Made by a program: the position numbers and the translations under genes. This document shows, piece after piece, positions 6,997 to 63,754 of a DNA stretch of 64,000 nt. Position 1 is the stretch's first letter, and each line of letters starts with the position of its first letter. The DNA lies in the NCBI RefSeq assembly GCF_006345805.1, contig NC_043019.1, forward strand, positions 21,513,360 through 21,577,359. The letters run 5' to 3'. The stretch is from Octopus sinensis (lineage: Eukaryota). The notes beneath the pieces are model-generated. The model was not told where the DNA came from. It made no database searches and worked only from the letters and a program-made list of their open reading frames with translations.

Positions 6997-9554
6997 TAAG
7001 TGTATAAAACCTATTGCAATGAATGCAATGTATCAAATGTTATAACTACTCTCTGATAGCAGCATTCTCAATGTGGAGCCACATTGCAAATGGAATACAA
7101 ATTGTTCTATAAAATTTGCCTGAAGTAGAGTTATTTTAGTCAAGTTCCCTTCTTAGAGATCTCAGAACTGCTGTCAATTCAAGTTGATGTCATTCTGCCA
7201 CTTCAACTCAAATCCCAGCATTGAACTATTATGGATTGAAGTAAACACAACAACATTTTTATTTCATCCTAAAGATGGAATTTCCTCTTCAGAACCAGGA
7301 CAAAAAAACCAAAAAAAAAAAAACCTTCAGTGCTGATTCATGGATGGAAACATTACACATGGAACAAATATGTCATCTACAAGAACAAATTTAAAATTGG
7401 AGGAAAATAGTGAGAATCTACATTAGCAGTAAACAAATGTAGTTAATATGAACACAAGAAAAGGTCTCGTATTTTGAGCTCAGGCTCTCTATCAACTACA
7501 ATAGACAGAATTCTCTATCTCTTCCTTGATATAGACCCTGAGCCCTAAACAACAGACCTTTTATTTTCTTCTTAGTAATTGCAGCTATTTTAACCACCAC
7601 ACTTGTTTTAAAGTAATACTCATACAGTATCAGGACTAGTATCCAATGATGTGCAGAGATTGAAGACGAAATTCCTCAATTAACAAGCTTTCACTGAATA
7701 TTCCACACCTTCTTTCCTATTCTTGAGCTGTCCTCACCTTCTAACTTTCATAGTTACTATTACTACTACAACAGCCTTTGCTTTTCTGGCCACTGATATG
7801 TGACAACATCATTACTTCATACAAATAGACAAATGTTCTCAAGTCATGTTTAGTATTTATCTTTTTAAAAATAGATTTAACACTTTACATGAGGTTTCTT
7901 TCCCAGAAGTTACCTTTCCCCCAGGATAACTCTACAACCATATCCACAAAAATTCAAACTCAATAATAACCCTATTAACGAACAGAATCCAGTTTTTCTC
8001 TCTCCATGCTCTAAGAAAGTTTACAAATCATGTGAGGTGAGATTTCTTGTTTAGGCAAACAATTTTTTGAAAAAATCCAATCCCAGACAGGCATTTAGCT
8101 TTTTCTGTATCTCATCAGGCTGCAAGTCTTTATCTTTAATAGAGGGACTAAGGTTAGAAACCTCAACTGTTTTACTGACTGCAGCCAATATCAGTGTCAG
8201 ACAGGTCATCTCAGTTGTTGGTCTTTTAATCAGTGTATCCCAAGTTGCTGGTAACCACTTTGAATTTTGCAAGTGACTGAGTTGCATAAACATATTTCTG
8301 ATAGAGCTCTTTGTACTTCATAACCTCTTTGCTGTGACTATAACCAAGACTAACTTTGAGGCTAAGTCCAACCAAATACTTTACTTTCTCAGATGAAGCC
8401 ACACCATCCCTACTAATATGCCACTGTCACAACCCATTAATAGTGTATGAGAAGTGAATTTACACCAAACTATTCTACAATGCTTAAGACAAGCTCATTA
8501 TTAGTGTTTTAAATAAGACTAATACTTAAAAAAATAAAAATAAAAAGATGAAGAAATTATAACAATGTTATTACTAGTTCTGAAGTCAAAAAGGTAATTA
8601 ATTAGTAGATAATTATTAAGGTTTAAGACATTTGGTAAACCATGCTTCACAGTTATATCAGATAAGAGGAAAAGAAAAAGAAATATATATATATAAATAA
8701 ATATATATAAATAAATATATAAAGGTACTCGACTCTGCAACACTGGAATAATATAGCGACTATTTGTCAAAACAACTCACAAAGCTTGAGGATTAAGGAA
8801 CAGTAAAGGCCAGATGTGATATGCATAAACAAATATAGATATATATATGTATATATATGATATTTATATAATATAATATATACATATATAGACATACATA
8901 ATATATGTATTATATGTAACACACACATATATATATATACACAATATAAAGTAATAGTCAAGGAGCAAATATATATAGTGGAGACATCGAGTGGTGGAGA
9001 AACCAGTTTATAAGCTGTACAAATATATAGAGATATATATACACACACACATATATATATATATATATACATATTTATTGGGAGAAATATCAAAATATGT
9101 GCAAAAACATTGGCAATGGAAACACACGTTTCCAGGTGAAGTGTGGACTTACCGGAAATGTTTTGGAAAGATCCTACAGCAAGCGTTAAGAAAACAAAGA
9201 CATTGAGCACACCATGGAAGAGAACAAAACAAAAACGCAAAAAACAGGGATACCCAAGACATGGGAGAGTGTTCACTCTTTGAGGGGTCTTTGTTTATTA
9301 ATTCTACAATTCTAAAATTCTAGTGTCTCACTCACTTCTCAAAGATTATTGATCTCTGCTGATTTCTAATAGTTATTGATTCTTAATTCAGACATACAAG
9401 CTATGAAATGGTTGGATAATATCCATACTCTCGGATGGTCATACTTGGCAATCCAGGAGGAAAGTGTAATGATGCTTGCTTCTACCAGGGCTATATGGAG
9501 CAGATGCCACAGGATCCCACACACATAAATCTCCCAGGAATAGTTGGCCGCAAA

Positions 9555-9933
9555 AGTAGATTGAGAGGCGGTTGGATGGAACTTACACTTGCCTCCTTAT
9601 GAGAGCTCCAAATCTCTCATGGAAGCGTCATCCAACCAAAGTACAAATATATGGGAAACTACCACCTGTATCATCTCTTGTGAAAGGTAGAAGAGTCCAG
9701 TTTGCTGGACATTGTTGTAGAGCTGAAAACGAGGTAATTTCTACTCTTCTCCTCTGGAAGCCATCTGCTCGCGATACCAGAAGGTGCACACTCTCCTACC
9801 CTGATGTAATCTCCAGGGATACAGGCATCCAGCAACAGGACCTCCATAATGCTATGATGGACCGTGAAGTCTGGCGTCACATAGTAAATTCCATTGTCTC
9901 GACTACGGTCGAACAATGATGATGATGATGATG
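9555..9933 (+). mobile_element. 5'-truncated RTE-clade LINE 3' end
   Basis: ORF LDGTYT.LL...NLSWKRHPT...RRVQFAGHC.R...LLLWKP...AMMDREVWR is the post-RT C-terminus of RTE-type LINEs; ends in a (GAT)n tail. Confidence 0.8.
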
Positions 9934-16332: not shown

Positions 16333-16982
16333 CTAATATAAGATATAAAGACCAAATAAAACCGACTGAAGGACAAGCAAGTGCTGAGTTTCAGGTTATG
16401 CCATTGTAGTTATATTTATTTTATTGGAAGTTTCCTTCCAACACATTGAAAAAAAAACCCCCAAAAAACCCCTCATTAAATGAAGAAAATGGGAATGGAT
16501 CATATAAATAGAAAATTTGAAATCTTTTGCTTGTTGAGCTGTAAATCCTTAAGAAGTTAATCTTTCTCAGGAATCCAGATTGATTTAACTTTATCAAATA
16601 AGTTGACAGGACTTGGTTGTATTAACACTTCGCCTACCATGAGAGTCACAAAGTGATTCCCCATGCTATATTCTTAATAAGGTGCAAAATAGGTTTGGCT
16701 GTCAAAGTTTAAAAAACAAAATATAACAATCTGAAAATGGTCTTTTACATTGAAATCAAAAAGAGCAAAACGTCCAGAGTTGTCTCCCATACTTGCCAAA
16801 TTAAAATATTATCAGGTAATGGTTAATATAATTTTTGTTTCTTCACTGTATAATTCTTACTAATTAACTTTTTTATGTCTCCCACTACCAACACCACCAT
16901 TAAATGTTAACACAAACTTCAAAACAATGACTATGAAATTCACAGAAGCTAGTGACAGTCTGCATTGACTGACAGCATTCCG

Positions 16983-20560: not shown

Positions 20561-21839
20561 TATTATTAGTAGTAGTAGTAGTAGTAGCAGTAGTAGTAGT
20601 AGTAGCAGCAGCAGTAGCAGTAGTAGTAGTAGTAGTAGTAATAATAATATATTCTCAGACAGAGAAAAATTACTTGGTCAAAGGTCATGAAGTATGTACC
20701 ATTGCCCTGGACATAAAGATGCTTCGTAACAGAGGCTGACACAATATAATACTCAAAGGGCTTGTGGCTAATTGCTTCAGTGGTTGTGAAACTAATTAGA
20801 CAGAATATCCATCAATGGCATTCTTTCAGATCAATATTTTCATCCGTCACCAGTCAATGGACCATTCACAGAATGTTCAATGTCAGACCAGTTTTTAGTT
20901 TTCAAAAATGACCTGATTTATCAATGCCTGCAAATGCGTGTTGTATCCATAAGGTGATGACATTACAATATTTTCCCAAGTAAGAACTTTAGTGAAGGCA
21001 TATGGCTTAGTGATTAGAGTATCTGGTTCATGAATGTAAGATTGTGAGTTTGATTCTTTGTGGAGCATTGTGTCCTTAAGCAAAACACTTTAGCCATGTC
21101 CCTTTGCATTAAATATGCTAACACAAACTTAACTATTGTTTTTCATGCAGATGGTGTCTCTGAGTCTGGATCAAGGGTCTAAAAGGCTTAGAATTTTATA
21201 ACTCTTTTTTAAAAAAAAGTTACTCTGCAGGTTGTTGTGTGGTTAAGAAGTTCATTTTGCAATCACATAGTATCAGGTTCAATCCCACTAAGCAGTACTT
21301 TGGGCAAATGTCTTCTACTATAACCTTGGGCTAATCAATGCCTTGTGAATGAATTTAGTAGATGGGAACTGTGTGGAACCTAGTTGTATAACTGTGTGTG
21401 TAGCATCCAGCATGCTCTGATAAGTGGCTGGTCTTAGGAAGGGCATGTAACCATAGAAACCATGCCACAACAGACAGTTGGAGTCCAGACAGCACCCTGC
21501 TAGCCAACTCAATGTCAAACCAACCATCCAATCAATGCTAGCATGGAGACTGGACATTAAACGATGATGATGGTAATGATACGTATGTGTGTGTGTTATT
21601 GCGTCTGTACCCCTGCCAACTGCTTGACAACTAGTGTTGGTTTATTTATATTTCTGTAACTTAGTGGTTCAGCAAAATAGACTGATAGAATGAGACCTTG
21701 ACTTAAAAAAATAAGTACTGGGATTGATTTGTGAGACAAAATCTTTCAAAGCAGTGCCCCAGAATAGCTGCAATCCAATTACTGAAACAAATAAAAGATA
21801 ATGACTACAAAAGATTTGTGTTGAAACAGAAATATTTAT

Positions 21840-22167
21840 GCATAATTAAATCTCAGAATGAGATTGAAACAGTAATCGCTCGATAATGTAAAGTATAGAA
21901 GCCATCTTATCATGGCTAACCACATAGGGGAGGGGGTGTTACTGTAGCTTTATAGCCCCAAGAGATCGTCATCTCTAGCTGGCTTTAGACACCATATCAG
22001 TGCCCTTGAAGTATTTGCAACCCTTTGCAACTCTTTGCAAATACTTCAAGGGCATTGATATGGTGTCTAAAGCCAGCTAGAGACGAAGATCTCTTGGGGC
22101 TATAAAGCTACAGTAACACCCCCTCCCCTATGTGGTTAGCCATGATAAGATGGCTTCTATACTTTAT
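21840..22167. mobile_element. Penelope-like palindromic insertion 1: 49-bp unpaired end plus 132-bp inverted arms
   Basis: Arms 21889-22020 and 22035-22166 with 3 mismatches; 12-bp direct repeat AGAAATATTTAT at 21828-21839 and 22168-22179. Confidence 0.75.
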
Positions 22168-22231
22168 AGAAATATTTATCTTCATTGAAAAAGAAAAAAA
22201 AAAATGATTAAAAAAAAGTTCGTTAACGAAC

Positions 22232-22475
22232 CTAAATGCTGCTGTCCTTTCTGAACTTTGATGTTTTTCTCCAGTGAAGCAGGTAAGGAGTCGACAGAGC
22301 CACTTAATGATCGTAAAGAAATTGGTGATGGAAGCGGTGACATTCTTGGAGACATTGTGCGTGGTGTGGATGATGGTGATGAAAATGCTTTAAGGTCACT
22401 TGTGGTGAAATGATCGGATGATGAACTATCCACACTTTCAGACTTTTTGTGGCCAATATGAGCTTTTAGATTTAC
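22232..22475 (-). CDS. MPDZ: MPDZ-family exon: Ser/Pro-rich linker and start of PDZ6 (…LEKNIKVQKGQQHLG)
   Basis: ctgtag|GTA acceptor and TTAG|gttcgt donor; 244 bp, phase 0-1. The split Gly codon joins the next exon in frame. Confidence 0.88.
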
Positions 22476-22750: not shown

Positions 22751-22961
22751 ATGGAATAATAAAGTGATGTTTATAAAGGGTTATCAAAGATTTGCAGCTA
22801 ACAGTTCCAGCTGAATGTCAAACCAAATTAATCTCCCCAGTTCTTAGAGAGTGAGCTTATAATTAGCTCAAAATAGTAAAAACTTTACAGCTTGGCAAGT
22901 TGGCTCATTGTTAAACTTTGAAGTCCCAGACATCCATTTTCTTGTAAAAATAAAATTAACA

Positions 22962-23218
22962 ATAATAAATCTCTGAGCGAGGTATAAACAATAGCTGCAA
23001 CACATCGTGAAGTATTTTTGCCACTTAAATGTGGCTAACCCCTAAGGGTGGATGCTACTGTAGCTTGTAGCCCCAGGAGGACACCTCCTCCAGCTGGCTA
23101 TTGACACACTTTTTGACACAACTCCTCCAGGTGGAGGAGGTGTCCTCCTGGGGCTACAAGTTACAGTAGCATCCACCCTTAGGGGTTAGCCACATTCAAG
23201 TGGCAAAAATACTTCATG
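22962..23218. mobile_element. Penelope-like palindromic insertion 2 (same family as 21840-22167)
   Basis: Arms 23004-23097 and 23127-23220 with 4 mismatches; TSD ATAAAATT(A/G)ACA at 22950-22961 and 23219-23230; homologous unpaired end TAAATCTC.GA..GAG.T..AAACA. Confidence 0.75.
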
Positions 23219-24078
23219 ATAAAATTGACACTTAAATGTATTCATGTGTTTCTCAAAAAAGTAATATTTCCTTATTGGGAGAACTGTTAGAGAGTCTGAC
23301 ACAATTACTTGCCATGTCTTGTACCAGTTTTTATCAATCTGATGAGAAAACCTCCAGTGATACTGATGTGAAGCTGTACTGGTCTTTAAAAATAGTCCCT
23401 CTCATTTGGACAAAATTGGTGACATGTAGAGGAGAACCATCAATTTTATGTTTATAATTGTAGATACATGGCCAAACTTGACCAATAGGCATCTGAGACT
23501 AACAGTCTGGTCACAGACCAATGACTGCAACCAGATGAAGGTAGTGCCTTAATATAACTATTATCTGATAAGCGAAGATGATAAAGGAATCAAAGAATAA
23601 AAGAATCAAAGAATACAGTAATCTAAAAGCTACATTCAGCGCAAATATGAATACAGAGTTCAAACAGAAACTGAATATATTCAATAAATAGCTTAACTTT
23701 GGAAAATAAATGTATATATATATATATATATATTGGAAAATAAATATATATAAAAAAAAAGTCTATATTCAGATCAAAATTTCTAAAACATCAACAATAA
23801 CAACAAAAACAATGACAGTGCTGCCACTACCACTGCAGAAGACAAGTTAAACATTAATAGTAAAAGACAATAGCAGGAAACAGCCAATAAAATTCAATGT
23901 ATCAATAACACACACATACATACATACATTAGGGAAAAAAATTCAGTTAAATTAAACCAGGAAACCTGTCAGTTGGAATTCTATAGAAATCATGTTTTTC
24001 AGTTTTTATTGTTGTTGTTGTTTATATTTTTTATTATTAATTTTATTATCAAGAGGTTATTACACACACACACAACTG

Positions 24079-26733: not shown

Positions 26734-27112
26734 CTTCTTCTTCTAACCGCTCAGTCGAAGTCGACTCTCGATCACTTGTTGGATCAGTGTCCTCCAGTCA
26801 GTTCTATCCTGAGCCGCTTCTTTCAGACTGGCTATGTCCATTCTGGTATCACTCTTAATGGTGTCAAGCCAGTGGGTTCTTGATCGGCCTCTTCTTCTCT
26901 TGCCACTGACCATTCCGAGCATGATGTCCTTCTCCAGGGATTTTCTCCACATAATATGACCAAAATATGCCAATCTATGCTTGGTGATCCTAGCTTCTGG
27001 CGACATTTTCGGCCTTATCTGCTTAAGAACTTCTCCATTGGTGAGCCTCGCTGTCCATGGAATCCGTAAAAGTCTTCTCCAACACCAAAGCTCGAATGCA
27101 TTAATTCTCTTC
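26734..27112 (-). mobile_element. 5'-truncated RTE/BovB-like LINE 3' end
   Basis: RINAFELWCWRRLLRIPWTAR...LAYFGHIM...LEKDIMLG.V.GKRRRGR...W.D...AAQDR.DWR; (GAA)n tail; TSD TGTGCCTT at 26726-26733 and 27113-27120. Confidence 0.9.
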
Positions 27113-28070
27113 TGTGCCTTACCAAGCAAAAAATGTGCAGCTGCAAACTGAACTCATAATCTTGTGATCATGAACTGAATATCCATAACAACTAAGCTAT
27201 GCACCTTCAGTATGTAAATATTAGGTTGAAAAACACTTGCTGATACAAAAAGTCAAAGGTCGCCCATGGGATTTGAAACCACGCCTCCTGCTGACATGAC
27301 ATCAATTCAATATTTACATGCATGTTTATAGCTTTATATGCATTTTGAGATCCAGTTCTAAAAATGAAATTATATGTGTGTGCGTGATTAAATTATAACA
27401 GCAGTAGATCAGACGCCATTCTATAGCCACACAGCTAGTACATCTATCTCATCTTTGAATTATTGGCCAATGGCATTAATATAGGAAAATATGCAGCTTG
27501 TGTATCTGTTGAGAATTCTCAATAATTTCCCACGAGGAATTATATTTAATGGAATACCAATACTTGGAGTAAGGATGGAGTGAAGATTTATCTTCAAGTA
27601 AATCATTGCTACCATCCTCCTCTTCCTCCTACTACTACTACTACTAATAATAATAATAATAACGGTTTCAAATTTTGGCACAAGGCCAGCAAGTTCGGGG
27701 GAGAAAGTAAGTCGATTACATCGACCCCAGTGCGTAACTGGTACTTATTTAATCGCTCCTAAAAGAATGAAAGGCAAAGTCGACCTCAGCGGAATTTGAA
27801 CTCAGAACATAAAGATAGACAAAATGCCACTGAGCATTTTGCCCAGCATGCCAACGATTCAGCCGGTTCCACATACCTTCTTGCTATCTCCTAGACCTCG
27901 GACTCCTCCACACACACTGTCACTAAGTCTCTCTTTCTTAATTTTCCCATTCACTTTGTCACACAGGTCCAAGCACACAAGCATCCATATCCATACACAC
28001 ATGTCCCCTTCTCCAAGCTGGGGAAGGATGGGGTGTCAAGGGTGGAGGAGTCGATGGTAAGGCTGGACAG

Positions 28071-29209: not shown

Positions 29210-29633
29210 ATTTTGTTGAACTTTGGGAAGATCATTATACCAACAATGGTTCTTTTTCACTTTTTTTTTTTAGTCAATTCTTTAACACTTAACCAATTAA
29301 TTAACTGATTGTTCAATTAATCATTCTGTCAATCAATCAATCAACCAGCTGGGTTTGTCAAAGTCCTTTCATTGCCATCTGCAACTTCAGCAAGGACATA
29401 CCCTCTCAATTCCAGGTTTGTTTCAGATCTGCCAGAAAGGGCATGCCATTGATGAGGTTGCAAATGGTGATGAAAGGACTTCGACAGAACTAGCCGATTG
29501 ACTGACTGAACGACCAATCAAACAATTGATTAGTTAATTAGTTAAATGTTAAAAAAAATTGAATATTAAAGTAAAGAAGTAAAGTGTGTGTGATAATTAT
29601 TGGCATAATGACTTTCCTAAGACACATCAAAAA
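29210..29633. repeat. Old long fold-back element (imperfect ~200-bp inverted arms)
   Basis: For example GTCAAAGTCCTTTCATTGCCATCTGCAAC vs GTTGCAAATGGTGATGAAAGGACTTCGAC, and TTTAACACTTAACCAATTAA vs TTAATTAGTTAAATGTTAAA. Confidence 0.7.
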
Positions 29634-30803: not shown

Positions 30804-32142
30804 ATGTACAGGCTAAGGTAGTAGTAGTAGTAGTAGTGATAGTAGTAGTAGTTGTTCAGTTCCAGGTTAGCTGTAATAAAAAGATCAGCAATTTTGTAGG
30901 GAGGTGGTTTGGTGATTACCACGCCCGCCCCAGGCCAGTATTTTATTTTGTTAACCCTATAGGAATGAAGGGTAAAGTTGACTTCAGTGGGGTGTGAACT
31001 TAGAAGGTAAAAAGTTGAAAGAAATACCCCAAAGTAATTTTTTTTCAACAGTCTAATGATACTGCAAACTCACAGGTACGTCTGATATTTGGAGGAGAGG
31101 AGTGAATTGGTTTTATACCACTGGACCCAGGACTTGACTAGCACTTTATTTTACTGACCCTAGGGAGATGAAAGGTAAAATTGTTTCTAACATAGGTGTA
31201 AGGCCTGGAGGTGGATAGAATAGTTAATTAAATTGACTTCAGTACTTGATTGGTACTTTATTTTTTCCAACCCTGAAAGAATTCAACACCATTTTCCAAT
31301 TTCCACCAAAAATACCAGAAAGACATTAATAGGCAAAATTCTGATTGTCCCAAAAGGTAAGAAAACACACACACACAGAAAGAGAGACAGAGTAACACCA
31401 GGAAAAAAATAACAACATAAAGGGAAATTAATATATCCTTTTATCTACTGGGAACAACGCCAACTTTAACTATGTAGAATGTATTAGTATAGATGCAATC
31501 ATGTAAGAATTTTAGCAACGGAAGTCATAACTACAGCCATTTATGTTTGGGACAGCAGTTACACATCAAACGATTTCCAAAATCACTCTGTATTAAATAG
31601 GTAGCATGAAAGTGTGTTTGTGTGTATGTTTACGCTATGCTGCATGTATTTACAATAGGACTTTCAGTTCCCTCAACATCAACTTGCCTGTGTACATTGA
31701 TTGACCTACAGATGTTAAGGCATGGTATTATCAGCCACATTAATCTTACCTGTCTGGGAAAACTTGCAAAGTATTGGCTTTTGGTCACCTTATGATGATT
31801 AACAAATGAAACATAAGGAAACTTCTGTGCATGTGTATGCGTGTATACAAAATTAAGAGGACTGACCACTAAAGTGGACACCTAATATGCTAAACATAGA
31901 CGTCAAATTGCCATTGACATCTATGTTTAGCATATTAGGTCAAATTGCCATTGACGTCTGTTCAAAAACTATGTCACTGTATGAAAAAATTTTATAACAT
32001 TCTTCTGACATAATGACTCAAATATATTTTTTAACCTTTTAAAACAAGCCTTCTGTAGTTTTTTTCACTTTTTACTATTTTCTATATATTCAACCACGTG
32101 CTTTCACACACCAACTTTCTCACCTATATATATATATATATA

Positions 32143-32423
32143 CATTATGTGTGTATATATAGCTATATATATATCATCATCATCATCATCGTTTAACGTC
32201 CGCTTTCCATGCTAGCATGGGTTGGACGGTTCAACTGGGGTCTGGGGAGCCCGAAGGCTGCACCAGGCCAGTTAGAAACACTGCCAGATCTGACTAGCCT
32301 GGTGCAGCCTTCGGGCTCCCCAGACCCCAGTTGAACCGTCCAACCCATGCTAGCATGGAAAGCGGACGTTAAACGATGATGATGATGATGATGATATATA
32401 TAGCTATATATACACACATAATG
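32143..32423. repeat. Fold-back inverted duplication of a family C SINE 3' half plus flank
   Basis: Arms of about 125 bp, identical apart from microsatellite length, around a spacer of about 28 bp. Confidence 0.9.
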
Positions 32424-34597: not shown

Positions 34598-34978
34598 TTA
34601 AATTTAAATGTTGAAGTGAATCTAACGGTTTTTGTGTGATTCTTAAATGGCTTATAAACATCTTCCACGCTGCAATTGTTTTCGTTCCAGCACACAATCT
34701 CAGATCAGGTCACTTGCTATGCAAGTACATCTCCATAATATATATATATATATATACATACATATATAAAGGGTCTATGAAGCAATAAATGGGTAGTCTT
34801 TAACTTTTACTATCCAAAGGAGTTATCAACCTAATATTTACATGCTATTAATTATAGTTAAATGGGCTTTGAGGTCCAATCTCCTAAAAAGGAATTATTT
34901 CTTATTCTCTTGAAAGTTTATGTCTTGTGACGTCAACGTATTTGTCTATATATATATATATAAATTTTTTTTTTTTCT

Positions 34979-35066
34979 GAATGAGATAAAAAACCAAGGC
35001 TGTGAAGATTTTAGAACATTTATAAATGTTCTAAAATCTTCACAGCCTTGGTTTTTTATCTCATTC
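34979..35066. repeat. Perfect 88-bp spacer-less palindrome (extends imperfectly to about 34955-35090)
   Basis: GAATGAGATAAAAAACCAAGGCTGTGAAGATTTTAGAACATTTA|TAAATGTTCTAAAATCTTCACAGCCTTGGTTTTTTATCTCATTC; centre at 35022/35023. Confidence 0.95.
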
Positions 35067-36707
35067 TGAAAGAAAATTTTTTTATATATACACATGCTGA
35101 TATATGACTTACATTGGACTCCTTATTTGCATAATCACCGAACCTGGAGCTTAACTATAGTCTATCCATAGCACTTACTCAGTATTACCTGACACCTTTG
35201 GGTGTCATTGACACCAATGCTTCTCATAACCTCTCTCTCTATATATAAATATATATATATACATAGAGAGAGAGAGAAGGATATGCTTTGTGGTACAAAC
35301 AGGAGTAATAGAACTCAGTTCACAAAAGCAGACCATATGTATTTCTTTGTTAGTAAGCTGTAAAATCACCTAGGGTGACGCAAGAATCACGAGTTTCATG
35401 TATGGCACTTATACCATATAGAAAACTCTTGCAGCTTTACAGTTAACTGTCAACCAAATTCCACTCACAAAACTTTAATCAACCCAAGGTTATAATAAAA
35501 GAGACCTGTTTAGAATGCACCATGCGATGAAACTGGAAACCATGTGGCTGTGAGACTGAATTGTTAACCTCACAGCCAATGTCTGCACCCACAGCTTGCA
35601 GTCTGTTAATTTTCAAACACATCAGCCAACAACTGAAACAGGATCTTACTGTATAATTTGATCCTAACAGGAAATAATATGGACTTTGATTTCTTTTTCT
35701 TAGTAATGAAGAAAAAGAAATAACTACAATCCTCTCCCAATCGGAAACCAGAATTTACGAGACAGCATTTGTGAAAATATAGTGATAAATTGCAGTGAGG
35801 ACTGTAGATATGTAAATGTATGCAATGTAAAAATTATTTGTCACAGTCTTGTCGATAGGACGATGTTGCATGAGAACATTCTATTTATAATGTTAGCAAT
35901 GATGCACATGCAGAATCTCTATGGTTGCTTGAAGTACTTATATATAAGATAAGGGCCATATCTGTTTTAAATTATACCTTTCTGTCTGTGAGAGAGCTTC
36001 TACATGGTCACTTAATTTGCTAGGAAATAGCAACCAAATATCTCTCAAACCATACCATATCATCTTTAAAAAAGAAGGCCACATTAATCAACGTCCTAAT
36101 AAAAAGAAACAAAAGGCCTGGATAGTCATGGCTGGAGTGACCTTCACCATATATCTGCTCAATTGGGAATGACTGAGGACTAAACAACAATAAGGGACAA
36201 ATATAGATATACAAAAAGAGACAGGTTGATTAAATCTGAAACATTTTTGGTCATAGGTCTGCTTAATAATGGCTGATTTGGGGACTAAACAACAATACAA
36301 AAAGACAGGGTGGTCATGGCTGGAATGTTTTTGGTCATAAGCCTGCTTGGTCAAAAGTAATTTATGGACTAAACAACTATAATAACAACATAAATATGAC
36401 AGAAGTGTCATATATGTGAATAATAACTTATGATTGTAATCTGAACACCCTACACACTAGGCCACACCCCCACACAGGTGACTATCACATATAATTTGTC
36501 CTCATAATAATAAAGGAATGTTTGCTGTTTTTTCTATATAAATAACATGCTCTAAAACCTGTAAAGTTTCTACTTCATCAAATTCACTTCTGTAACATGG
36601 ATAAACTAATTGTTTGAGAACAGAAATGTCTCATCGTTTATTACACTATAATTAATTACAATATCACAAGATTTTGTTATGCATACTCTTTTGAAGATCA
36701 ATAATTA

Positions 36708-39482: not shown

Positions 39483-39644
39483 AATAGCATATATAAATAT
39501 ATTTTGATTAAACAAACAAAGAAGAAAACATTTAAAAAAAAAGAAAGAAAATTAAAGATTTACCGATTGTCATTTTTCTTCTTTTTACCATTTACAAGTA
39601 AAAAAACAAAACAACAGACTATGAGATTGAAGAAAATTTACTAC

Positions 39645-40505
39645 CTTTGTTTTGCATAATTCCTGTGCAACATCAATGCTGTGAATAGACTCAGAAACAA
39701 CACCACCGAATTGGGACAAAGGAAAGCTGTCTGTTTCTATGGAAGCTTTCTCCTCATTATCAATGAGATTTAATGCTAAAGAAGCCTCTTGAGCCTCAGA
39801 AATGCCATCGGGAGACTCATCTTCAGAGTGTTTAGACGATAAGCTTAAATCAGTTTCATGTGATTCCACCTCAGATTCAATGAGTGGTGATTTCAAGTTT
39901 GATTTTACCACCGTAGCTGTTATTAAGTCTTCGTCCTCATAGAAGCTGTCCTCGCGGATCAAGTTCTGTGTTTTGGCAGTTCCCAACTTAATATCAGTAG
40001 GCTTTGGAGGGAGAGCTGGTTTCAAAGGTTGAGTTAGCAGATCAGGACTCAGTTCTGGATATGAGTACAGAGGCTCTTGTAATGAGACTGATTTAGTTTT
40101 GTCTGGAAACTCTGCAATTACATTACTTTCTTCTCTAAATTCCAAAGTGTTGACCACCTGATAATTCTCTTCTAAGCTAGCAGTTGGTTCAAAAGTAGGA
40201 GCAGCAGCAGCAGCAGCTAGCAGAACTGGCTGCTCAGAAGTAACAGAAGCATCAACATCAACATCAGCATCAATATCAACATCAACATCAACAGTAGCCT
40301 CAGTAATGGTAGTAGTAGAAGTAGTAGTAGTAGTAGCAGCAGCAGTACTAGCAGCAGCAGTATATAGTGATGGTGGTGGTAGTGTAGGTGATGCACGTGG
40401 TGATGCTAATGGTGATGATAAGGATGATGATAATGAAGGGACTGCAGAGTTGGAAATAGCATGTGCAGAACTCAGTGGAACAAGTGGTGCATTTAAATAC
40501 AGGAT
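39645..40505 (-). CDS. MPDZ: MPDZ-family exon: large acidic/Ser-Thr-Pro low-complexity linker between PDZ5 and PDZ6
   Basis: ctgcag|ATC acceptor and AAG|gtagta donor; 861 bp open, phase 0-0, compatible with neighbours. Protein-like composition (PALPPKP, REDSFYEDED). No domain homology, so the 5' boundary is less certain. Confidence 0.72.
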
Positions 40506-42195
40506 CTGCAGGCAAGAAACATAGAAGACAACATCGAGAATAGAAACATGCACAATAATTTTATAAAGTTAACAGCATCATGCACAAGAATTTTCAAAAG
40601 TATTTATAAAAAAAAAAAAAAAAAAGCCGAAATCCAAGAAAAAGAAAGAAGTTATATCAGAAAAAGATAAAGAAGAAAAAAAAAATAAGAGAGAGCTTTA
40701 AGCACTCGCATCAAAAAACAAATTTATTTTTCTTAAAAAAATGCTTTCAGTTTTTCAGCACACACACATACACACACACAAACACACACACGTGTATGTT
40801 TGTGTGTGTGTGCGTGTGCGTGCATGCATGCCTATATGCATACGTGTATGTAATTTATTTTTTAAAAATATTTTCTCTGTTTATATTTTACAGTTATTTA
40901 AACAAATTTTTAATGTAAATTCATCTTTTTATTGAGTGATATTATTTTCAGCTAAAACTATAAACTATTTTCATTTCTAGTTTTCATAACCTTAGATAAA
41001 CCATAAAGTTTCTATAAGCTTTGTACAAAATACAAGCTACAATAATCACATAGAGCAATAATATGAACATTGTGAATAAATGCCAAGATAAGGATTTTCA
41101 ATGAGGAAGAAGTATAAAATAATCTCACAGACTCACAATTTATATATATATATATATGTATGATTAGGTGGCTGAGGGCTACATGCAAGGAACTTCAAGA
41201 AATGTGAAGTTGAGTCAAATACATGTAACTCCAACAGATGTATTGAGTGCTACTTTCTTTCAAAGGTTCACCCGTGTATGAGTGTGAGTATTTATGTAGA
41301 TCTTATTTTTCATCAAAAACAATCATTATCTTTTTAAAAAAACACCTTGGCAACTACATTGAGGATACTTTTTCTGAGCAATTTTACTGAGAAAATATTG
41401 CTGAGAAAACAAGTCCTGTATGGTTAGAAATGAATAAACATAAGACATAATTATAGGAAATAGTTTAAGGTAAAGGAAAAATAATTTATTTAGGGTCCAA
41501 AAATATATATATATGTATGTATTTGTATTATCTTAAAATATATCCTGCCTTATATACATACTGAATTTCTGGTGAAAAAGTTTTTTAAATATTTATGGAA
41601 AAAAAAAGCGAAACAAATATGAAATATTTTACACAATGAATAAGCATTTAATATTTACATGGAAAGCAGATATATTTGTAATTTTCAACATGCATTAAAA
41701 ACTTTAACAACAATGATAATAACATTAAGAAGATGAAGAAGAAAGAGAGGCAGAAAGAAGGAAGGAGAGAAAGAAAAGAAAGATAAACAATAATAGAATT
41801 AGATTCTTCAGATGGATAAGGGAATAAGGAAATTATCAGATAAGCCAGTGTCAAAAATTTAAGTTGAAGAAAAAAAATTTGCTATGTATAGAGATAGCTA
41901 ATGTGAAAGTTTTTAGGAGAACATTGTCTAAATTTAATAAACTGAGACATTTATATGGATGAGCAGAGCATGAATATGTATAATGCATGTATGTATATCT
42001 TATCTACCTACTTATAATTTATTTATGTATGAATGTATATATGTATCTGTGTGTTAAAAAAAATGAAAACACTTGAGAAGTTTTTCTATTACACTAAATT
42101 ACATGTATAACACTTCTCAAAACAAGCAGGAACTGCCGGTCTCTAGAATGAAATTTCTCAAGTGCTCGCAGCTACAAAAGTCATGTAAATATAAG

Positions 42196-44832: not shown

Positions 44833-46325
44833 GTACCAGTATTCAGCTGGTACTCAATTTCAGTTGAATAGACTGAACCAACATGAAATGGAGATCAAGG
44901 CTCCATTGTCAGCAAATATTCTTGTTTGTTTGTTGTTGTTATTGTTGGACTGATAACTAGGACTGAGTGAGCTTTAGCCCTTTTGCCTGACGTATGGTTT
45001 CCGTCCACACTGGGCTTACATTGGGATATTGGAGTTACCGTTTGTAGAACACTATGTTGGCCCTGACAGGATAGACCTTTGATGCCAGACAATCTAGTTG
45101 TGACCATCTCACCATACTTTTTCAGATGTAGTGTACTTAGAACACCATATATGTAAAATATTATTCTTATATTGAAATGTTAGAGCATGATATGAGGTAG
45201 AAATGGCTGCTTTATCTAGTAAGTTGAGCAAATGTGTAAGAGGTTCCTTTGTTTCCTAGTACCATGTGGTTAAAAGTTCACATCCTATCACCAGCACTAT
45301 GTAACACTATGTCCATCCACGACCAATGAGCCTAATTTCAATAAGTCAGTGAGGGAGCCACCTAAGTGAAATAACAGCCTAATCTTCCTGAAACTGCACA
45401 CTACTGCCTTAAAAACCACCCCCAAAAAATATAGAAAAAAAAAGAGACACAATGCAGGTCTTAACATACAAATAAATGATTGGAATAGCCTTCATTATAT
45501 GTCTGATGAGGTTTACTAAGACCGAAAGATGTTCAAAGTTGTCTCCTGTATTTGCCAAAATAATTAAAATAATATTAGTTAGTGACTGATATTGTCTTTT
45601 CCTCACTGCATAATTATTTTTAATTAGCTTTGTTAATGATCATTGCATTAAATATGTTCATATATACTGTTATATTGAATATATGGGAAGGTATTATTCA
45701 CGAGTATTTTGTCAGTTTGCAGTGTGAAGTTCAAGTTCTTCAACAGACCAAAAATAGGTCTCAAGAAGCACCACAAGGAATTCTCTCCAAAGAAATACTT
45801 AAACTGATTAGACTACAACACAGGAGGGGAGGGAGAGAAGGAAGGAAAGAAGGAAGGAAAGAAGGAAGTGATAAGGAGAAATGGGGAGTAGAAGGAGGAG
45901 AATAAAAGCAAGAAGGGGGAGAGGACAAGGAGATAAGAGAATGAAGTTAGAGGAGGAGAAAGAGGAGAGGAGAGGAGAGAAGAAGAGATAATGAAAGAAA
46001 AGTGAAACAAGGGAAGAGATAGAGAGAAAGAGGAGAAGAGAGAGAGAGAGAGAGTCAAGGGGAGAGAAGGGAAAGAGCAATAGATAAACAGGAGAAAGAG
46101 GTAGAGGAGTAGTAGGAGGAGAAGACAAATAAAACCAGTCATTCCTGACACAATATGGATCCTACAGGAGTTGGTAATTGGTCGTTATTGTGAGCAACTA
46201 ATCTATTATTTAAATAGTCTTTTATTAATTATTTAAACCTAATCGGCCAGTATTATTACAATAAATAGCAACATCTTTAAAGGGGCAAAAAAATAATATA
46301 TACACAATACATACAATATATATAT

Positions 46326-50339: not shown

Positions 50340-53050
50340 TCATATTATTGTGGGTTTCTGATGATGAGAGTTAGAGAGGAGTATCTGTGACTACATGTGA
50401 AGGAAGTCCTTGCTTGAAGAGTCTGTTCAGTCTTGGCTGGGGATTTAGGGGCTTAAATGACAAAAAACAACAACAAACTTATGAAAGAGAAGACGAAGGA
50501 AAAGAACAGTAGAGTGTAAAACCAAATTAGAAATTATTGACTTAGTGCTTTACAGAACAGAGACTGAATAATCGAAGTTGAGAATAAATCAATGAACCAA
50601 TCAAATGACCATCACCACACCACCACCACTATTTAATCTCACTCAATATTCCTCTCTCTTTCTCTCTCATTTTTGCTTCTTTTTTGGTTTTTTGTGACAT
50701 TCATCTTACAGTTTGGCAACTGTTGGATTGAAATGCAAGCTTAAAACATCAATTATTGTTATAATTATTGTTATTATATAGGAAGGAAGTGCACTGTTAG
50801 AGTTGGTATGCACACAAATTGGATGAGATTCAAATAAATGAAGCACTCATAGTGGTCATCTGCATGATAGAAATCATTTGCGATAATCATAAAGGATTCA
50901 AATTTTAGCATGAAGTTAGCAAGTTTAGGAGAGGGGAGTAAGTTGATTACATTGACCCCAGTGATCAACTGGTACTTATTCTATCAATCCTGAATGGCTA
51001 AAAAGCAAAGTGGACCTTAGCAGCATTTGAACTTGAATGTAAAGAGCCAGAAGAAATGCTGCTAAGCATTAACAGAACTGTTTATTCATTGCCTTATGAA
51101 TAATAAAAATAATAACAGTTTCAAATTTAAGTACAAGACTAGCAATTTTGCAGGGATGGTAAGTCAATTACATTGACCCCAGTGCTCAACTGGTACTTAT
51201 TTTATTGACTCTGAAACAATCTAATGGTTCTGCCAGAGCTGGCAGAATCAACGGCTTTGAAAAACTGACTGAATATTTTCAAACTGTTCCAAACAAGGTA
51301 TAAAGAAATGACAAGGAATCATGAAAAGTCCTTAATAAATTAAGGATAAAACTTAACGTAGTTATGTTTAATGAGAGTATGTTTGGCCGAAAAGTTGTCC
51401 CCTAGTTACACACACATCTAGGGAACGGTATTCAGGTACACATTTCAGTTGAGTAGACTGCAGCAATGTAAAATGAAGTGCTTTGCTGAAGGACACAATA
51501 AACTGTTGGTTTGGGAACTGAAACCCTAGCCTTATAGTGGTGAGCTCAAAACTCTAATCCACAAGGCCATGCATCTATCAAATGGTTAGGATTTTAGATT
51601 CTGTACAAGGCAGACAAACAATTCTTTCATTGATTTTTTACATATACCAACTTCTTTTACAATGGAATTAAACTAAATACCACAATTTGATCATATTATT
51701 GTGGGTTTCTGATGATGAGAGTTAGAGAGGAGTATCTGTGACTACATGTGAAGGAAGTCCTTGCTTGAAGAGTCTGTTCAGTCTTGGCTGGGGATTTAGG
51801 GGCTTAAATGACAAAAAACAACAACAAACTTATGAAAGAGAAGACGAAGGAAAAGAACAGTAGAGTGAAAACCAAATTAGAAATTATTGACTTAGTGCTT
51901 TACAGAACAGAGACTGAATAATCGAAGTTGAGAATAAATCAATGAACCAATCAAATGACCATCACCACACCACACCACTATTTAATCTCACTCAATATTC
52001 CTCTCTCTTTCTCTCTCATTTTTGCTTCTTTTTTGGTTTTTTGTGACATTCATCTTACAGTTTGGCAACTGTTGGATTGAAATGCAAGCTTAAAACATCA
52101 ATTATTGTTATAATTATTGTTATTATATAGGAAGGAAGTGCACTGTTAGAGTTGGTATGCACACAAATTGGATGAGATTCAAATAAATGAAGCACTCATA
52201 GTGGTCATCTGCATGATAGAAATCATTTGCGATAATCATAAAGGATTCAAATTTTAGCATGAAGTTAGCAAGTTTAGGGAGAGGGAGTAAGTTGATTACA
52301 TTGACCCCAGTGATCAACTGGTACTTATTCTATCAATCCTGAATGGCTAAAAAGCAAAGTGGACCTTAGCAGCATTTGAACTTGAATGTAAAGAGCCAGA
52401 AGAAATGCTGCTAAGCATTAACAGAACTGTTTATTCATTGCCTTATGAATAATAAAAATAATAACAGTTTCAAATTTAAGTACAAGACTAGCAATTTTGC
52501 AGGGATGGTAAGTCAATTACATTGACCCCAGTGCTCAACTGGTACTTATTTTATTGACTCTGAAACAATCTAATGGTTCTGCCAGAGCTGGCAGAATCAA
52601 CGGCTTTGAAAACATGACTGAATATTTTCAAACTGTTCCAAACAAGGTATAAAGAAATGACAAGGAATCATGAAAAGTCCTTAATAAATTAAGGATAAAA
52701 CTTTAACGTAGTTATGTTTTTAATGGAGAGTATGTTTGGCCGAAAAGTTGTCCCCTAGTTACACACACATCTAGGGAACGGTATTCAGGTACACATTTCA
52801 GTTGAGTAGACTGCAGCAATGTAAAATGAAGTGCTTTGCTGAAGGACACAATAAACTGTTTGGTTTGGGAACTGAAACCCTAGCCTTATAGTGGTGAGCT
52901 CAAAACTCTAATCCACAAGGCCATGCATCTATCAAATGGTTAGGATTTTAGATTCTGTACAAGGCAGACAAACAATTCTTTCATTGATTTTTTACATATA
53001 CCAACTTCTTTTACAATGGAATTAAACTAAGTACCACAATTTGATCATAT
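50340..53050. repeat. Tandem duplication of about 1.35 kb (50340-51690 and 51691-53044)
   Basis: Near-identical copies differing mostly by 1-2 bp indels; TCATAT at all three junctions. Confidence 0.95.
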
Positions 53051-56356: not shown

Positions 56357-56522
56357 CTGGATTTGGCAAGAAAAGAAAATAGATATATATATATATGAAA
56401 ATGGCACCGAATACATCTTGATTGTGTGTATAGAGCTGTTTGCAGGCATTTGGCTTAAATCACTAGAATTGTGTGTTTGAGCATGTGTTCATACACACAC
56501 ATCTATATTATAAAAAATGACT

Positions 56523-56961
56523 AGGTGTAAGAGGGCTGTGTGGTAAGTAGCTTGCTTACCAACCACATAGTTCCAAGTTCAGTTCTACTGCATGGCACCT
56601 TGGGCAAGTGTCTTCTACTATAGCCTCAGGCCGACCAAAGCCTTGTGAGTGGATTTGGTAGACGAAAACTGAAAGAAGCCCATCGTATATATGTATATTT
56701 ATATATATACGATATATATGTATATTTATATATATGTGTGTGTGTGTGTGTATCAAGCGATGTCCCCCCAACATCGCTTGACAACCGATGGTGGTGTGTT
56801 TACGTCCCCGTAACCTAGCGGTTCGGCAAAAGCAACCGATAAAATAAGTACTAGGCTTACAAAGAATAAGTCCTGGGGTCGATTTGCTTGACTAAAGGCA
56901 GTGCTCCAGCATGGCCACAGTCAAGTGACTGAAACAAGTAAAACAGTAAAAGAGTAAAGAG
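56523..56961 (+). mobile_element. SINE family A, full-length
   Basis: Matches the family consensus; (AAGAGTA)n tail. Confidence 0.9.
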
Positions 56962-56990
56962 TATTAGTGATAGGGGCAATATTAATACCA

Positions 56991-57196
56991 AGAGATAATA
57001 TTTATCCCCACTTAAAAGTGGATGTTCTGTTAGAACAAACTATACTGCAGAAGAAACTGTGAGAGAAACTTGAGAGATACCATGAGATTAGTTTGCCCCA
57101 AAAGCCTATATGAGAGTTGCTCTCATGGTATCTACCGCAGTATAGTTTGTTCTAACAGAACATTCATGTTTAAGTGGCCATAAATATTACCTCTCT
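56991..57196. repeat. Imperfect hairpin element
   Basis: ATGTTCTGTTAGAACAAACTATACTGC / GCAGTATAGTTTGTTCTAACAGAACAT and inner AGATACCATGAGA / TCTCATGGTATCT. Confidence 0.8.
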
Positions 57197-57485
57197 ATAT
57201 ATTATAAAATTTTGGTTGGATCGGGGCTTGTAAGTTTTACTTCACAAGTTGACTAAGCTGTCAGATGAAATTTAGAAGTCCATGTGAAATGAATTTTCAA
57301 ATATATTTGACACTACCATCAGTATAAGTATCCTGGACCTCAGTTAATATTCTGTTATTCTTTTAAATTTACTCTAAAATGATAACCTGAAATTAACACA
57401 CACACACACACACACACACATGTTTGCTGTTGCTCCCACCACCATCATTTAATGTATGCTTTCCATACTGGTATGAGTTGAACAA

Positions 57486-59538: not shown

Positions 59539-59735
59539 CCGGAGTAAGCACATAAATGTGAAACATGGTGGAAAAAAGAGTACTCAAATACCAGATGTAG
59601 AGTAATATGCTTTATTAATAGCAGCAGAAACATCCCAAAAACTGTTACTCAGAGTTTCATGTTGCCATTTGGCAGGAACATGAAACTCTGAGTAACAGTT
59701 TTTATGATGTTTCTGCTGTTTTTAATAAAGTATAT
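59539..59735. mobile_element. Penelope-like palindromic insertion 3 in (TA)n
   Basis: Unpaired end of about 66 bp, then arms 59605-59663 and 59677-59735; the arm carries GAAAC-TCTGA-GTA (hammerhead 3' half) and AATAAA. Confidence 0.6.
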
Positions 59736-60169
59736 ATATATGTGCTATGCAGTATCTTAGGTAAATGTCTTCCATTACAACCTGGGTTTGGCAATTACTT
59801 TGTGAATGAATTTGGTTGGTTGATGGAAACTGTGGGAAACCTATCTCATATATATCTAGATAGCTACATATATACATACACATTCACAAAAGTACATGTA
59901 TGTGTGTGTGTGAATGTGTGACAGTCACTGTTGGAATGAAACAGTAATGATATTTATGTCTCTTATTGACACTATAGCCAGTTACTCTGCACTTTCAAAC
60001 ACCTGAGGGAAAAAAAAAAACTTGAAGAACAGTTTAGTGTTGGTAATAGAAAAAGCATCATGTTGCAAATGCTGGCTCTCCCACAGGCTGTCAAGGAAAA
60101 AAGTTAAAGACTTGTTTAACGTCTTCTATATATGTGTATATGTATCTGCATGTGTGTGTATATATATAT

Positions 60170-62285: not shown

Positions 62286-63754
62286 CATGTGTCTGTGAGT
62301 GTGTTTGCCTGTGTCTTCCTGTCTTAATTTTGCATGATAGTTGTAAATGATTGTCACTGTCATACAGTGTCATTCATTTCCAATATTCCACAACAACATT
62401 TCTGGCCTTGGGGAAATATTACTTTGATTGGAAACAGGTGAAAGTTGGGGACAACAAGGGTATTTGACTGTACAAAATCAGTCTCAATAAACTTTGTCTG
62501 ACCAATGCAATCATGGAAAAGTGGATGTCGTGATGATGATGATTAAATAAAATGACACAGAGTAGTATCATTTTCAATGACTAAATACAATTAACAAGTG
62601 ATTCATTAATTACTATATAAAGTCCAGAAGCCCTTTTGTGCACAAAGGATGGTAGCTGTAAGTAAAAGAAAAAAGCAAGAGAAGAAATACTATAGGCTTC
62701 ATGCGGAAGTGAAGATTACTTAGTAGCATGTACCATGCTTTTTCTAGTTGTCTTAGGTGCCTGTAGAGTCCTTAGAAAATACAGACACTTTGGCCTACTC
62801 ATGGATGTGACAGCTGGAGGGAGATAAGGCTGCACAAGCAGTGCAATTAGCAGGTACTCATATTCAGTCAGGTAGATAGAGGCAAGATAAACAGAACTGT
62901 CTTGTTTAAAGACACAATGCACCATCTGGTCAAGGACTTGAATCCAACCCCCTAGCCACTAGACAACATGCATTCCACACTACTATAACTTCTTTATATA
63001 ACAGGCAAATGGAATAAATGCTCTTGACCATAAATATCTTCCCTGAAGTTTCTAAATTTTAACTATTATCAACAGTTATTTTTTTAACACCCAAGTCAAC
63101 CCCTCCAAGCCAAACCCATGATCAAAAGCATTCTAGCTACAACCACCCTATCCTTAATTTATTTATTTTTATCTTTCAGGAAGAGAACTAAAATGTATTC
63201 TTCCTTTTTATAAAATAGTAAGGTGTAATTTGCGAGTGATTTTGCAGCTATTTTTAGCAGGTCAAGTGACACAGTATAGATGCTCAAAAGTCTCATGAGA
63301 AATACATGCCTGTTAAGATTCTTCACCATCCTAGTGGCTCTATTTTGGGAATTAATTAAATTTTACAAGTTGTCTGCACATTTTAAAGATACAGTCAAAT
63401 CCTGACAGCCCAATTTGCCAAAATATCATTATTCAATATTCTGGTTACATTTTTGAAGCACCAAGATAAATTTGGATTCTTTCAAGGAATTCTTCTTTCA
63501 TAAGTTAGATCACTTTACAGTAGAGTGATGCCATTGTAGACACAGCATTAAGAACCACTGCTATTGCGAAGATTGCTACAGTAATCAAATAATTATTTTT
63601 TAATTAAAATTTTGGTAGGAATTCTTTAATTCTTTATTTAATTTTGGCATTTCTCATTGGTTTAGATTAAAAAATAAATATTTTGAAGGGTATGAATTGT
63701 GCAATGTGTGTGCATGCATACAGTTGTGTTTGTATAGATACATACATACATATA

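Follow-up and report, generated by a model that had tools for sequence, protein, structure and literature searches.

Introduction

The closest described systems to the insertions reported here are Penelope-like elements (PLEs), whose genomic copies can carry an inverted pseudo-LTR (pLTR), an optional 31-bp tail and a target site duplication (TSD) of 8-10 bp (PMC3846280). Palindromes at the inverted junctions were interpreted in the same work as a sign of self-priming, and the same layout of tail and inversion has been given for all EN+ PLEs, with its mechanism called undefined (PMC8557442). The PLE protein of the anole cuts and extends both target strands and prefers AT-rich DNA, and in vitro its reverse transcription (RT) has two start sites, one at each boundary of the tail seen in genomic copies (PMC11167929). 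As these accounts put it, the origin of the PLE tail and of the inverted copy is unresolved (PMC8557442, PMC11167929). Naiad PLEs have been reported from Octopus spp. (PMC8557442), and non-LTR retrozymes are described as non-autonomous PLE derivatives that carry type I hammerheads and form head-to-tail tandems (bioRxiv 10.64898/2026.07.22.740005).

Octopus bimaculoides is also known for strong hyper-editing, and an exceptionally high fraction of its random 50-mers, 4.4 x 10^-3, are near-perfect dsRNA formers (PMC5625713). A similar value in a frog comes partly from a palindromic repeat and a lizard Penelope is named as massively edited, while the octopus is left out of the repeat analysis as that report presents it (PMC5625713). 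Here we describe two short insertions, A and B, in a 64-kb stretch of octopus DNA (the window), and ask what kind of integration could have produced them.

Results

The window and its host gene

The window is AT-rich animal DNA with many microsatellites and dispersed repeats. On its minus strand lies an MPDZ/Patj-like gene (18344-58914), whose best named protein hits are from bivalves and gastropods at 62-69% identity and whose supported exons are at 58914-58528, 56359-56114, 22412-22230 and 18547-18344. The exon that separates A from B occupies 22232-22475 on the minus strand, as placed by tblastn with its 5' boundary at 22475 read from the sequence; the tblastn match itself, at 22230-22412, is to three of six named mollusc proteins (best E 3e-15). 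The donor GT of this exon is at 22231, A begins 52 nt into the next intron and B lies about 470 nt upstream of the exon. Since both insertions fall inside the span of the host gene, its pre-mRNA is predicted to carry duplexes of 133 bp and 92 bp.

Several other features of the window deserve mention. The MPDZ/Patj-like gene may have an additional exon in a low-complexity frame of 327 codons (39585-40568). The frames at 26743-27153 (minus strand) and 9560-9919 (plus strand) resemble C-terminal remnants of RTE-type LINE proteins; neither has a Pfam match. Two apparently identical segments 1349 bp apart, 50891-51071 and 52240-52420, appear in several repeat families and reflect either tandem duplication in the recent past or a repeat created by the assembly. 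Finally, a U6 snRNA-like match at 2016-2107 on the minus strand (36.5 bits against a gathering threshold of 44, E 1.8e-05) is a probable retrocopy.

Anatomy of the two insertions

Insertion A is bounded by an exact 12-bp TSD, at 21828-21839 on the left and 22168-22179 on the right, whose word, AGAAATATTTAT, occurs exactly at these two places only in the 64-kb window. An exact 12-bp repeat in the same geometry was found at 2 of 5000 random non-simple window positions. Inside the left TSD is a 49-bp tail (21840-21888) that is present on one side only and is assigned to the minus strand from the PLE layout, not from folding. It is followed by a tail-bearing arm of 132 bp on the minus strand (21889-22020), a loop of 14 nt (22021-22034) and an inverted, tail-less arm on the plus strand (22035-22167); the paired parts of the arms, 21889-22020 and 22035-22166, are 132 bp each with three mismatches. 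The inner junction (22015-22041) holds three copies of TTGCAA at 10-bp spacing, beginning at 22015, at 22025 and, for the third, within an 8-bp palindrome, TTTGCAAA (22034-22041), and two of the three form the inner ends of the arms. All of this bears out a preceding description of the locus made from the letters alone (the sequence-only reading), which had claimed for A the 12-bp TSD, the 49-bp one-sided end, the 132-bp arms with three mismatches and the triplicated TTGCAA; to it we add the single unpaired base at 22167, included in the inverted arm, that separates the paired part from the right TSD.

Insertion B, which the same reading had called a sister with the same layout, a homologous unpaired end and a duplicated word in its loop, agrees with that account at each point. 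Its TSD copies, 22950-22961 and 23219-23230, are identical at 11 of 12 positions, and a repeat of at least 11/12 in this geometry was met at 31 of 3000 random window positions. The tail (22962-23007, minus strand) is 44-46 bp long, according to where one places the bases at the junction. The tail-bearing arm (23008-23097, minus strand) ends inwardly in the palindrome CCAGCTGG, and the inverted tail-less arm (23127-23218, plus strand) is counted with two junction bases; measured by pairing, the arms extend over 23004-23097 and 23127-23220, that is, 94 bp with four mismatches, of which the outer 2 bp overlap the TSD. The 29-nt loop (23098-23126) reads in order as about 10 nt of element sequence, a duplicated TTGACACA with starts at 23101 and 23113, and a re-copy of the bases that precede the palindrome. 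Those first 10 nt or so are homologous to positions 21983-21992 in the arm of A and occur on the tail-bearing side only. The palindrome CCAGCTGG at 23090-23097, which recurs with one mismatch at 23127-23134, is the centre of the B junction and is a further addition to the earlier description.

The insertions measure 257-328 bp in full, with a retained unit of 150-180 nt. Beside the TSDs, their true termini carry no inverted repeats (6/20 and 4/20 matches), and neither A nor B has a poly(A) or simple-repeat end, as the tails end in AT-rich, non-repetitive sequence.

Homology, ends and junctions of A and B

The tails of A and B are identical at 29 of 44 positions, with an alignment score of 36 that was reached by none of 5000 shuffles and by none of 19530 random window segments (best random score 35), and the units are identical at 103 of 149 positions (69%). 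Their flanks align poorly. Homologous tails and units in different flanks indicate that A and B are separate insertions of related mobile sequences. They are the only family members in the 64 kb, share one orientation and are separated by 0.8 kb, with one exon between them.

The 90 ungapped arm columns comprise 62 that are constant, 23 that are diagnostic of the copy, none that is diagnostic of the arm and five that are private. The arms are thus more alike within a copy than the two copies are to each other, as had been noticed at the outset, and the columns exclude an old, inherited palindrome decaying freely, as distinct from one kept alike by conversion or selection.

The two ends of the inverted arm behave differently. 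Its outer end maps to one homologous column, to within 2 nt, in both insertions (2/2 copies), and were that end placed at random over about 140 nt, the rough chance of such a match would be about 0.04. Beyond it lie one (A) or two (B) bases that depart from the template, with 1-3 nt of possible microhomology to the target; A and B share the same substitution relative to their own templates at the first column past the inverted arm. The inner junctions, by comparison, are about 39 nt apart. At the centre of each is a palindrome that occurs as direct copies (three of TTGCAA in A and two of CCAGCTGG in B), and these junction palindromes are the only palindromes of at least 6 bp in the arms of A and B; across the window, centres of palindromes of at least 6 bp occupy 2276 of 63800 positions (3.6%).

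Folding of the hairpins and of the unpaired unit

As full hairpins, A and B fold with z-scores of -34.7 and -21.7 and predicted energies of -251 and -180 kcal/mol, respectively. Mutual pairing between the two insertions over the intervening exon, at -107 kcal/mol, is much weaker than self-pairing. The retained unit was also folded as a single strand. Taken singly it gives a weak signal for A (z -1.3) and a moderate one for B (z -2.8), and a predicted helix between tail and arm forms when A is folded by itself (pairing 0.57-0.75) and is absent when B is (0.0). The consensus fold of the two aligned units reaches -32.2 kcal/mol with 27 pairs, none of them broken and five changed on both sides, a count that comes from only two sequences.

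On the minus strand, the consensus energy was reached by none of 500 column shuffles, also when only variable columns were shuffled, and on the plus strand by 0-2 of 500. The count of double changes was matched on the minus strand by 69 and 49 of 500 shuffles, which is not significant, and on the plus strand by 3 and 7 of 500. With consensus energies of -32.2 and -31.4 kcal/mol for the two strands, folding cannot tell which strand is the RNA. In the predicted folds, the short stems of the unit cannot form inside the full hairpins of A and B, where they are out-competed, and the template was therefore probably single-stranded and unpaired. This suggests that the sequence of the unit may have been selected as an unpaired single strand, with the palindrome a product of insertion and not its template.

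Relatives, coding capacity and known RNAs

BLAST, nhmmer and covariance-model searches of the window returned only the four arms of A and B. The next-best profile and covariance matches had E values of 0.016, to an unrelated hairpin at 59592-59743, and 0.19, followed by a weak likeness (E 0.31) to an older hairpin at 56991-57194. No remnant of an RT or GIY-YIG domain was recognised among the 41 window frames of at least 110 aa, five of which were scanned against Pfam. A frame that is open across both tails has no real homolog among 1.84 billion representatives; its two protein matches are both spurious sums over repeats, at no more than 13.6 bits per stretch. Coding constraint in the unit was considered and rejected, as the differences between A and B are spread over the codon positions as 9/9/12 with no bias.

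No hammerhead was detected by Rfam in the retained 150-180 nt of A or B, and none of the eight window hits of a motif scan with a hammerhead core falls in either insertion. The hammerhead form is described in PMC4209133. Such a ribozyme could sit 5' of the truncation of A and B. A twister-like or hammerhead-like reading of the unit by eye, against consensus sequences, was abandoned when the core proved not to be conserved between A and B. Among the 86 Rfam matches in the window the only ones over A are sub-threshold miRNA-like hairpins and there are none over B, and for the unpaired unit of A no known RNA family appeared below E 2, the CRISPR-repeat-like matches at E 4.6-8.3 being attributable to chance. 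A prokaryotic origin was likewise rejected, with no match of the gapped A/B pattern in GTDB genomes. We found no published account of the family in the literature, and it may be catalogued in Repbase or Dfam.

Other fold-backs in the window

Comparison of the window with itself yielded 13 local inverted matches at 12 distinct places, nine of which were examined for TSDs. One of them, H (59539-59740), shows no sequence relationship to either insertion and has a 66-nt tail, 59-bp arms with five mismatches and a (TA)n target, again in the order tail, arm, loop, inverted arm. Its centre, judged by eye, holds a decayed hammerhead-like core; Rfam reports no hammerhead there, and no other copy of H is present in the window. 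The layout of H suggests PLE activity in this genome. The older hairpin mentioned above (arms 56991-57070 and 57115-57194, 85% identical; whole region 56504-57209) carries a dispersed repeat of about 440 bp nested in its putative tail. The left copy of a candidate 12-bp TSD is found 7 nt ahead of this repeat; among 1500 random trials, 102 (47 of them non-simple) gave a comparable TSD-like match within 800 bp.

Five further fold-backs (C, D, F, G and I) have no convincing TSD. At 32143-32423 a 5'-truncated repeat that ends in (ATG)n folds back almost perfectly, with about 30 bp of flank included in both arms and no TSD; uninverted relatives are at 63724, 49914, 46952 and 21581. A small snap-back event at 31880-31970 consists of a 61-bp hairpin and, after it, a second copy of the loop region in direct orientation, a template-switching pattern. 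The window also contains an 80-bp perfect palindrome with zero loop at 34983-35062 (region 34955-35090) and two old hairpins of about 70% identity at 29260-29576 and 7431-7590, and the palindrome CAGATCTG is common to the junctions at 29424-29431 and 32285-32292. At 45503-45535 on the plus strand is a minimal hammerhead-like motif with a plausible stem II, for which Rfam gives HH9 at only E 8.5; the sequence downstream is related to 16772-16858, and the motif is possibly a remnant of a PLE terminal repeat.

Discussion

We favor, at a probability of roughly 0.7, the reading that A and B are 5'-truncated insertions of PLE type that belong to two subfamilies and were inverted during integration. 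The inverted truncated copy, one-sided tail, TSD and junction palindromes match the descriptions in PMC3846280 and PMC8557442, in keeping with the Penelope-like layout that the sequence-only reading had recognized. Several points count against this interpretation: tails of 46-49 bp compare with 30-40 bp, and TSDs of 12 bp with 8-10 bp, in the published descriptions drawn on here; only two copies are present in the window, with no RT or GIY-YIG remnant and no hammerhead; and other fold-backs in the window lack a TSD or tail. On balance, A and B probably represent independent, recent and heavily truncated insertions of a structured RNA by Penelope-type machinery.

The idea that the inversion is made at each insertion, previously argued from the identity of arms within a copy, is likely; the argument itself is insufficient when used alone, because the arms of TIR elements also co-evolve within a subfamily. 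Better support comes from three observations: A and B share an outer end, their inner junctions differ, and the stems of the unpaired unit covary. With only two copies an inversion once per insertion and one per subfamily are inseparable. It had further been proposed that this is a non-autonomous family. With no further copy and no partner ORF in the window, that claim is neither supported nor refuted, since an autonomous element truncated on its 5' side would leave ends that look just the same. As for the fresh hairpin that such a family was said to manufacture, it would be a by-product of the known PLE layout and adds no new property; the hairpin of A and B would be a dead end.

A plausible route begins with staggered nicks 12 nt apart in AT-rich DNA, which would leave the TSDs that we observe. 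One nicked strand would then prime RT from the outer limit of the tail and the other from a second fixed position, 46-49 nt inward, and the two new strands would be copies of one sequence that differ in having or lacking the tail; the fixed end is seen in both copies, and two start sites may have been used to produce it here. Synthesis would halt after about 100-180 nt. The ends would slip and re-anneal once or twice, giving rise to the duplicated words found in the loops, and then be joined within a short word that is self-complementary, by a chemistry at which the junction anatomy can only hint. Fill-in would complete the order TSD, tail, arm, loop, inverted arm, TSD. We infer the enzymes (an RT and a GIY-YIG endonuclease), the RNA strand and the order of steps. 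In a variant of the middle steps, a single cDNA would slip, duplicate the palindrome, fold back onto the first palindrome copy and be cut at a fixed site. This fits the sequence equally well and would explain the duplicated palindrome in both loops; the fixed outer end would then call for an explanation of its own.

It is conceivable, if rather unlikely, that no Penelope enzyme was needed and that the target-primed insertion of a LINE- or SINE-type 3' end was finished by host snap-back repair, in which the cDNA folds back, copies itself and joins the other target end by microhomology. The templated short duplications at both junctions and the 1-3 nt of microhomology or filler at the outer junction are typical of end-joining and would suit this scenario, as would the fold-back of the (ATG)n-end repeat together with its flank (32143-32423) and that of unique DNA at 31880-31940; moreover, the fold-backs that have no TSD indicate that such structures also arise otherwise, which keeps host repair alive as a rival. 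Yet a common outer end in A and B is not expected under host repair, neither has a poly(A) or repeat tail, and two of two copies here are inverted. Fold-back inversions are known at somatic L1 insertions, where they accompany 0.3% of events and, in that description, lie upstream of the target site (PMC10191854).

Less probable still is an inherited palindrome, that is, a non-autonomous DNA transposon (MITE) of fold-back or Mutator-like type whose arms are kept alike by selection or conversion, in which case A and B would be two subfamilies that differ in their internal deletions. The length of the arms and of the TSD would suit Mutator-type elements, whose TSD is about 9-11 bp, the 23 copy-diagnostic and zero arm-diagnostic columns are also expected under homogenization, and MITEs can be reduced to their TIRs (PMC8969392). 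Against this, the ends beside the TSDs are not inverted repeats (6/20 and 4/20), a conserved extension of 46-49 bp lies outside one arm, and the covarying stems belong to an unpaired unit that hairpins of -251 and -180 kcal/mol would out-compete. Template switching of a generic kind, acting on unique DNA already present, was discarded for these two insertions, since the same tail and arm occur at two loci whose flanks differ. Fold-back chimeric reads are a known class of artefact, and an assembly or sequencing error, or mere chance, is very improbable as an explanation, given that the arms differ by three and four substitutions, that the TSD copies of B differ by one, that a tail and an end point are common to two separate loci, and that chance is excluded by the shuffle, random-position and folding statistics.

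Self-folding intronic insertions of this kind are a candidate source of octopus dsRNA and hyper-editing. By an ungapped approximation of the 50-mer measure of PMC5625713, 695 of 63950 window 50-mers have a near-perfect inverted partner, or 498 after 197 simple-repeat ones are dropped; of the 498, 262 come from A and B, 436 from four fold-backs and 62 from two pairs of dispersed repeats in inverted orientation, shares that are a lead and not an estimate, as the window was singled out for its hairpins. It is tempting to speculate that an active, hammerhead-less, structured non-coding RNA is copied by PLE enzymes, lands nearly always as short-loop, near-perfect hairpins and, along with further fold-back insertions, supplies much of the dsRNA and hyper-editing of Octopus bimaculoides. 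We regard this as improbable; if it were true, thousands of junctions would form a natural record of how PLEs join strands. More generally, in short young insertions with a fixed outer end, junction counts could test two-strand priming against fold-back.

How, then, do A and B compare with known systems? Like EN+ PLEs (Penelope/Poseidon; Pen2a_Av, PMC3846280, and PAc, PMC11167929, as described there), they have an inverted 5'-truncated copy with a one-sided tail, a TSD around the whole insert, a palindrome at the inverted junction, an AT-rich target and no poly(A). An inverted truncated copy and a tail boundary fixed within 2 nt are each seen in 2/2 copies, and a TSD in AT-rich DNA is seen at 12/12 positions in A and 11/12 in B. 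Unlike EN+ PLEs, they retain no ORF, direct pLTR or hammerhead, and the insert is only 257-328 bp; a direct partial tandem (pLTR) is absent from these two short copies, and no longer copy is found in the window. To judge from their sequence, A and B quite likely work as PLE insertions do, and PLE membership is a candidate assignment.

Naiads share with A and B the inverted layout with a tail and the lack of a canonical hammerhead. They differ in their preference for (TA)n targets and, as reported, in having long been inactive in cephalopods (PMC8557442); A and B, by contrast, are young insertions into non-repeat DNA. Naiad identity was rejected: the ends given for Naiad_Obim and Naiad_Ovul look by eye unlike those of A and B, and the targets are not (TA)n. 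Four 9-nt motifs occur at six places in the supplement of PMC8557442, the four places inspected being in unrelated context, and one 19-nt motif of the Octopus Naiad end has no match in the window. Retrozymes, as presented so far, are likewise short, non-coding and structured and have been proposed to be mobilized by PLE enzymes (bioRxiv 10.64898/2026.07.22.740005); retrozyme identity was set aside in view of no tandem array at either locus and no hammerhead.

Further afield, L1 twin priming resembles A and B in an inversion that takes place during insertion, inside the TSD, with both target strands as primers. It joins two segments from different parts of the RNA, whereas both arms of A and of B are the same sequence. 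LINE or SINE identity was rejected, as neither A nor B has a poly(A) or simple-repeat 3' end, and no Replitron-like direct terminal repeats were seen in them beyond the TSD. MITEs and fold-back transposons differ from A and B, which have no TIRs at their true ends, a one-sided tail and a centre that differs from copy to copy. The palindromic Harbinger of Xenopus, in the account available, is like them a short self-folding insert with a TSD and a potential ADAR substrate (PMC5625713). As the layout of tail and inversion has already been published for PLEs, the locus of A and B is by itself ordinary; most likely, the two insertions are a small new example of that layout, and their interest lies in what they might contribute as a source of dsRNA.
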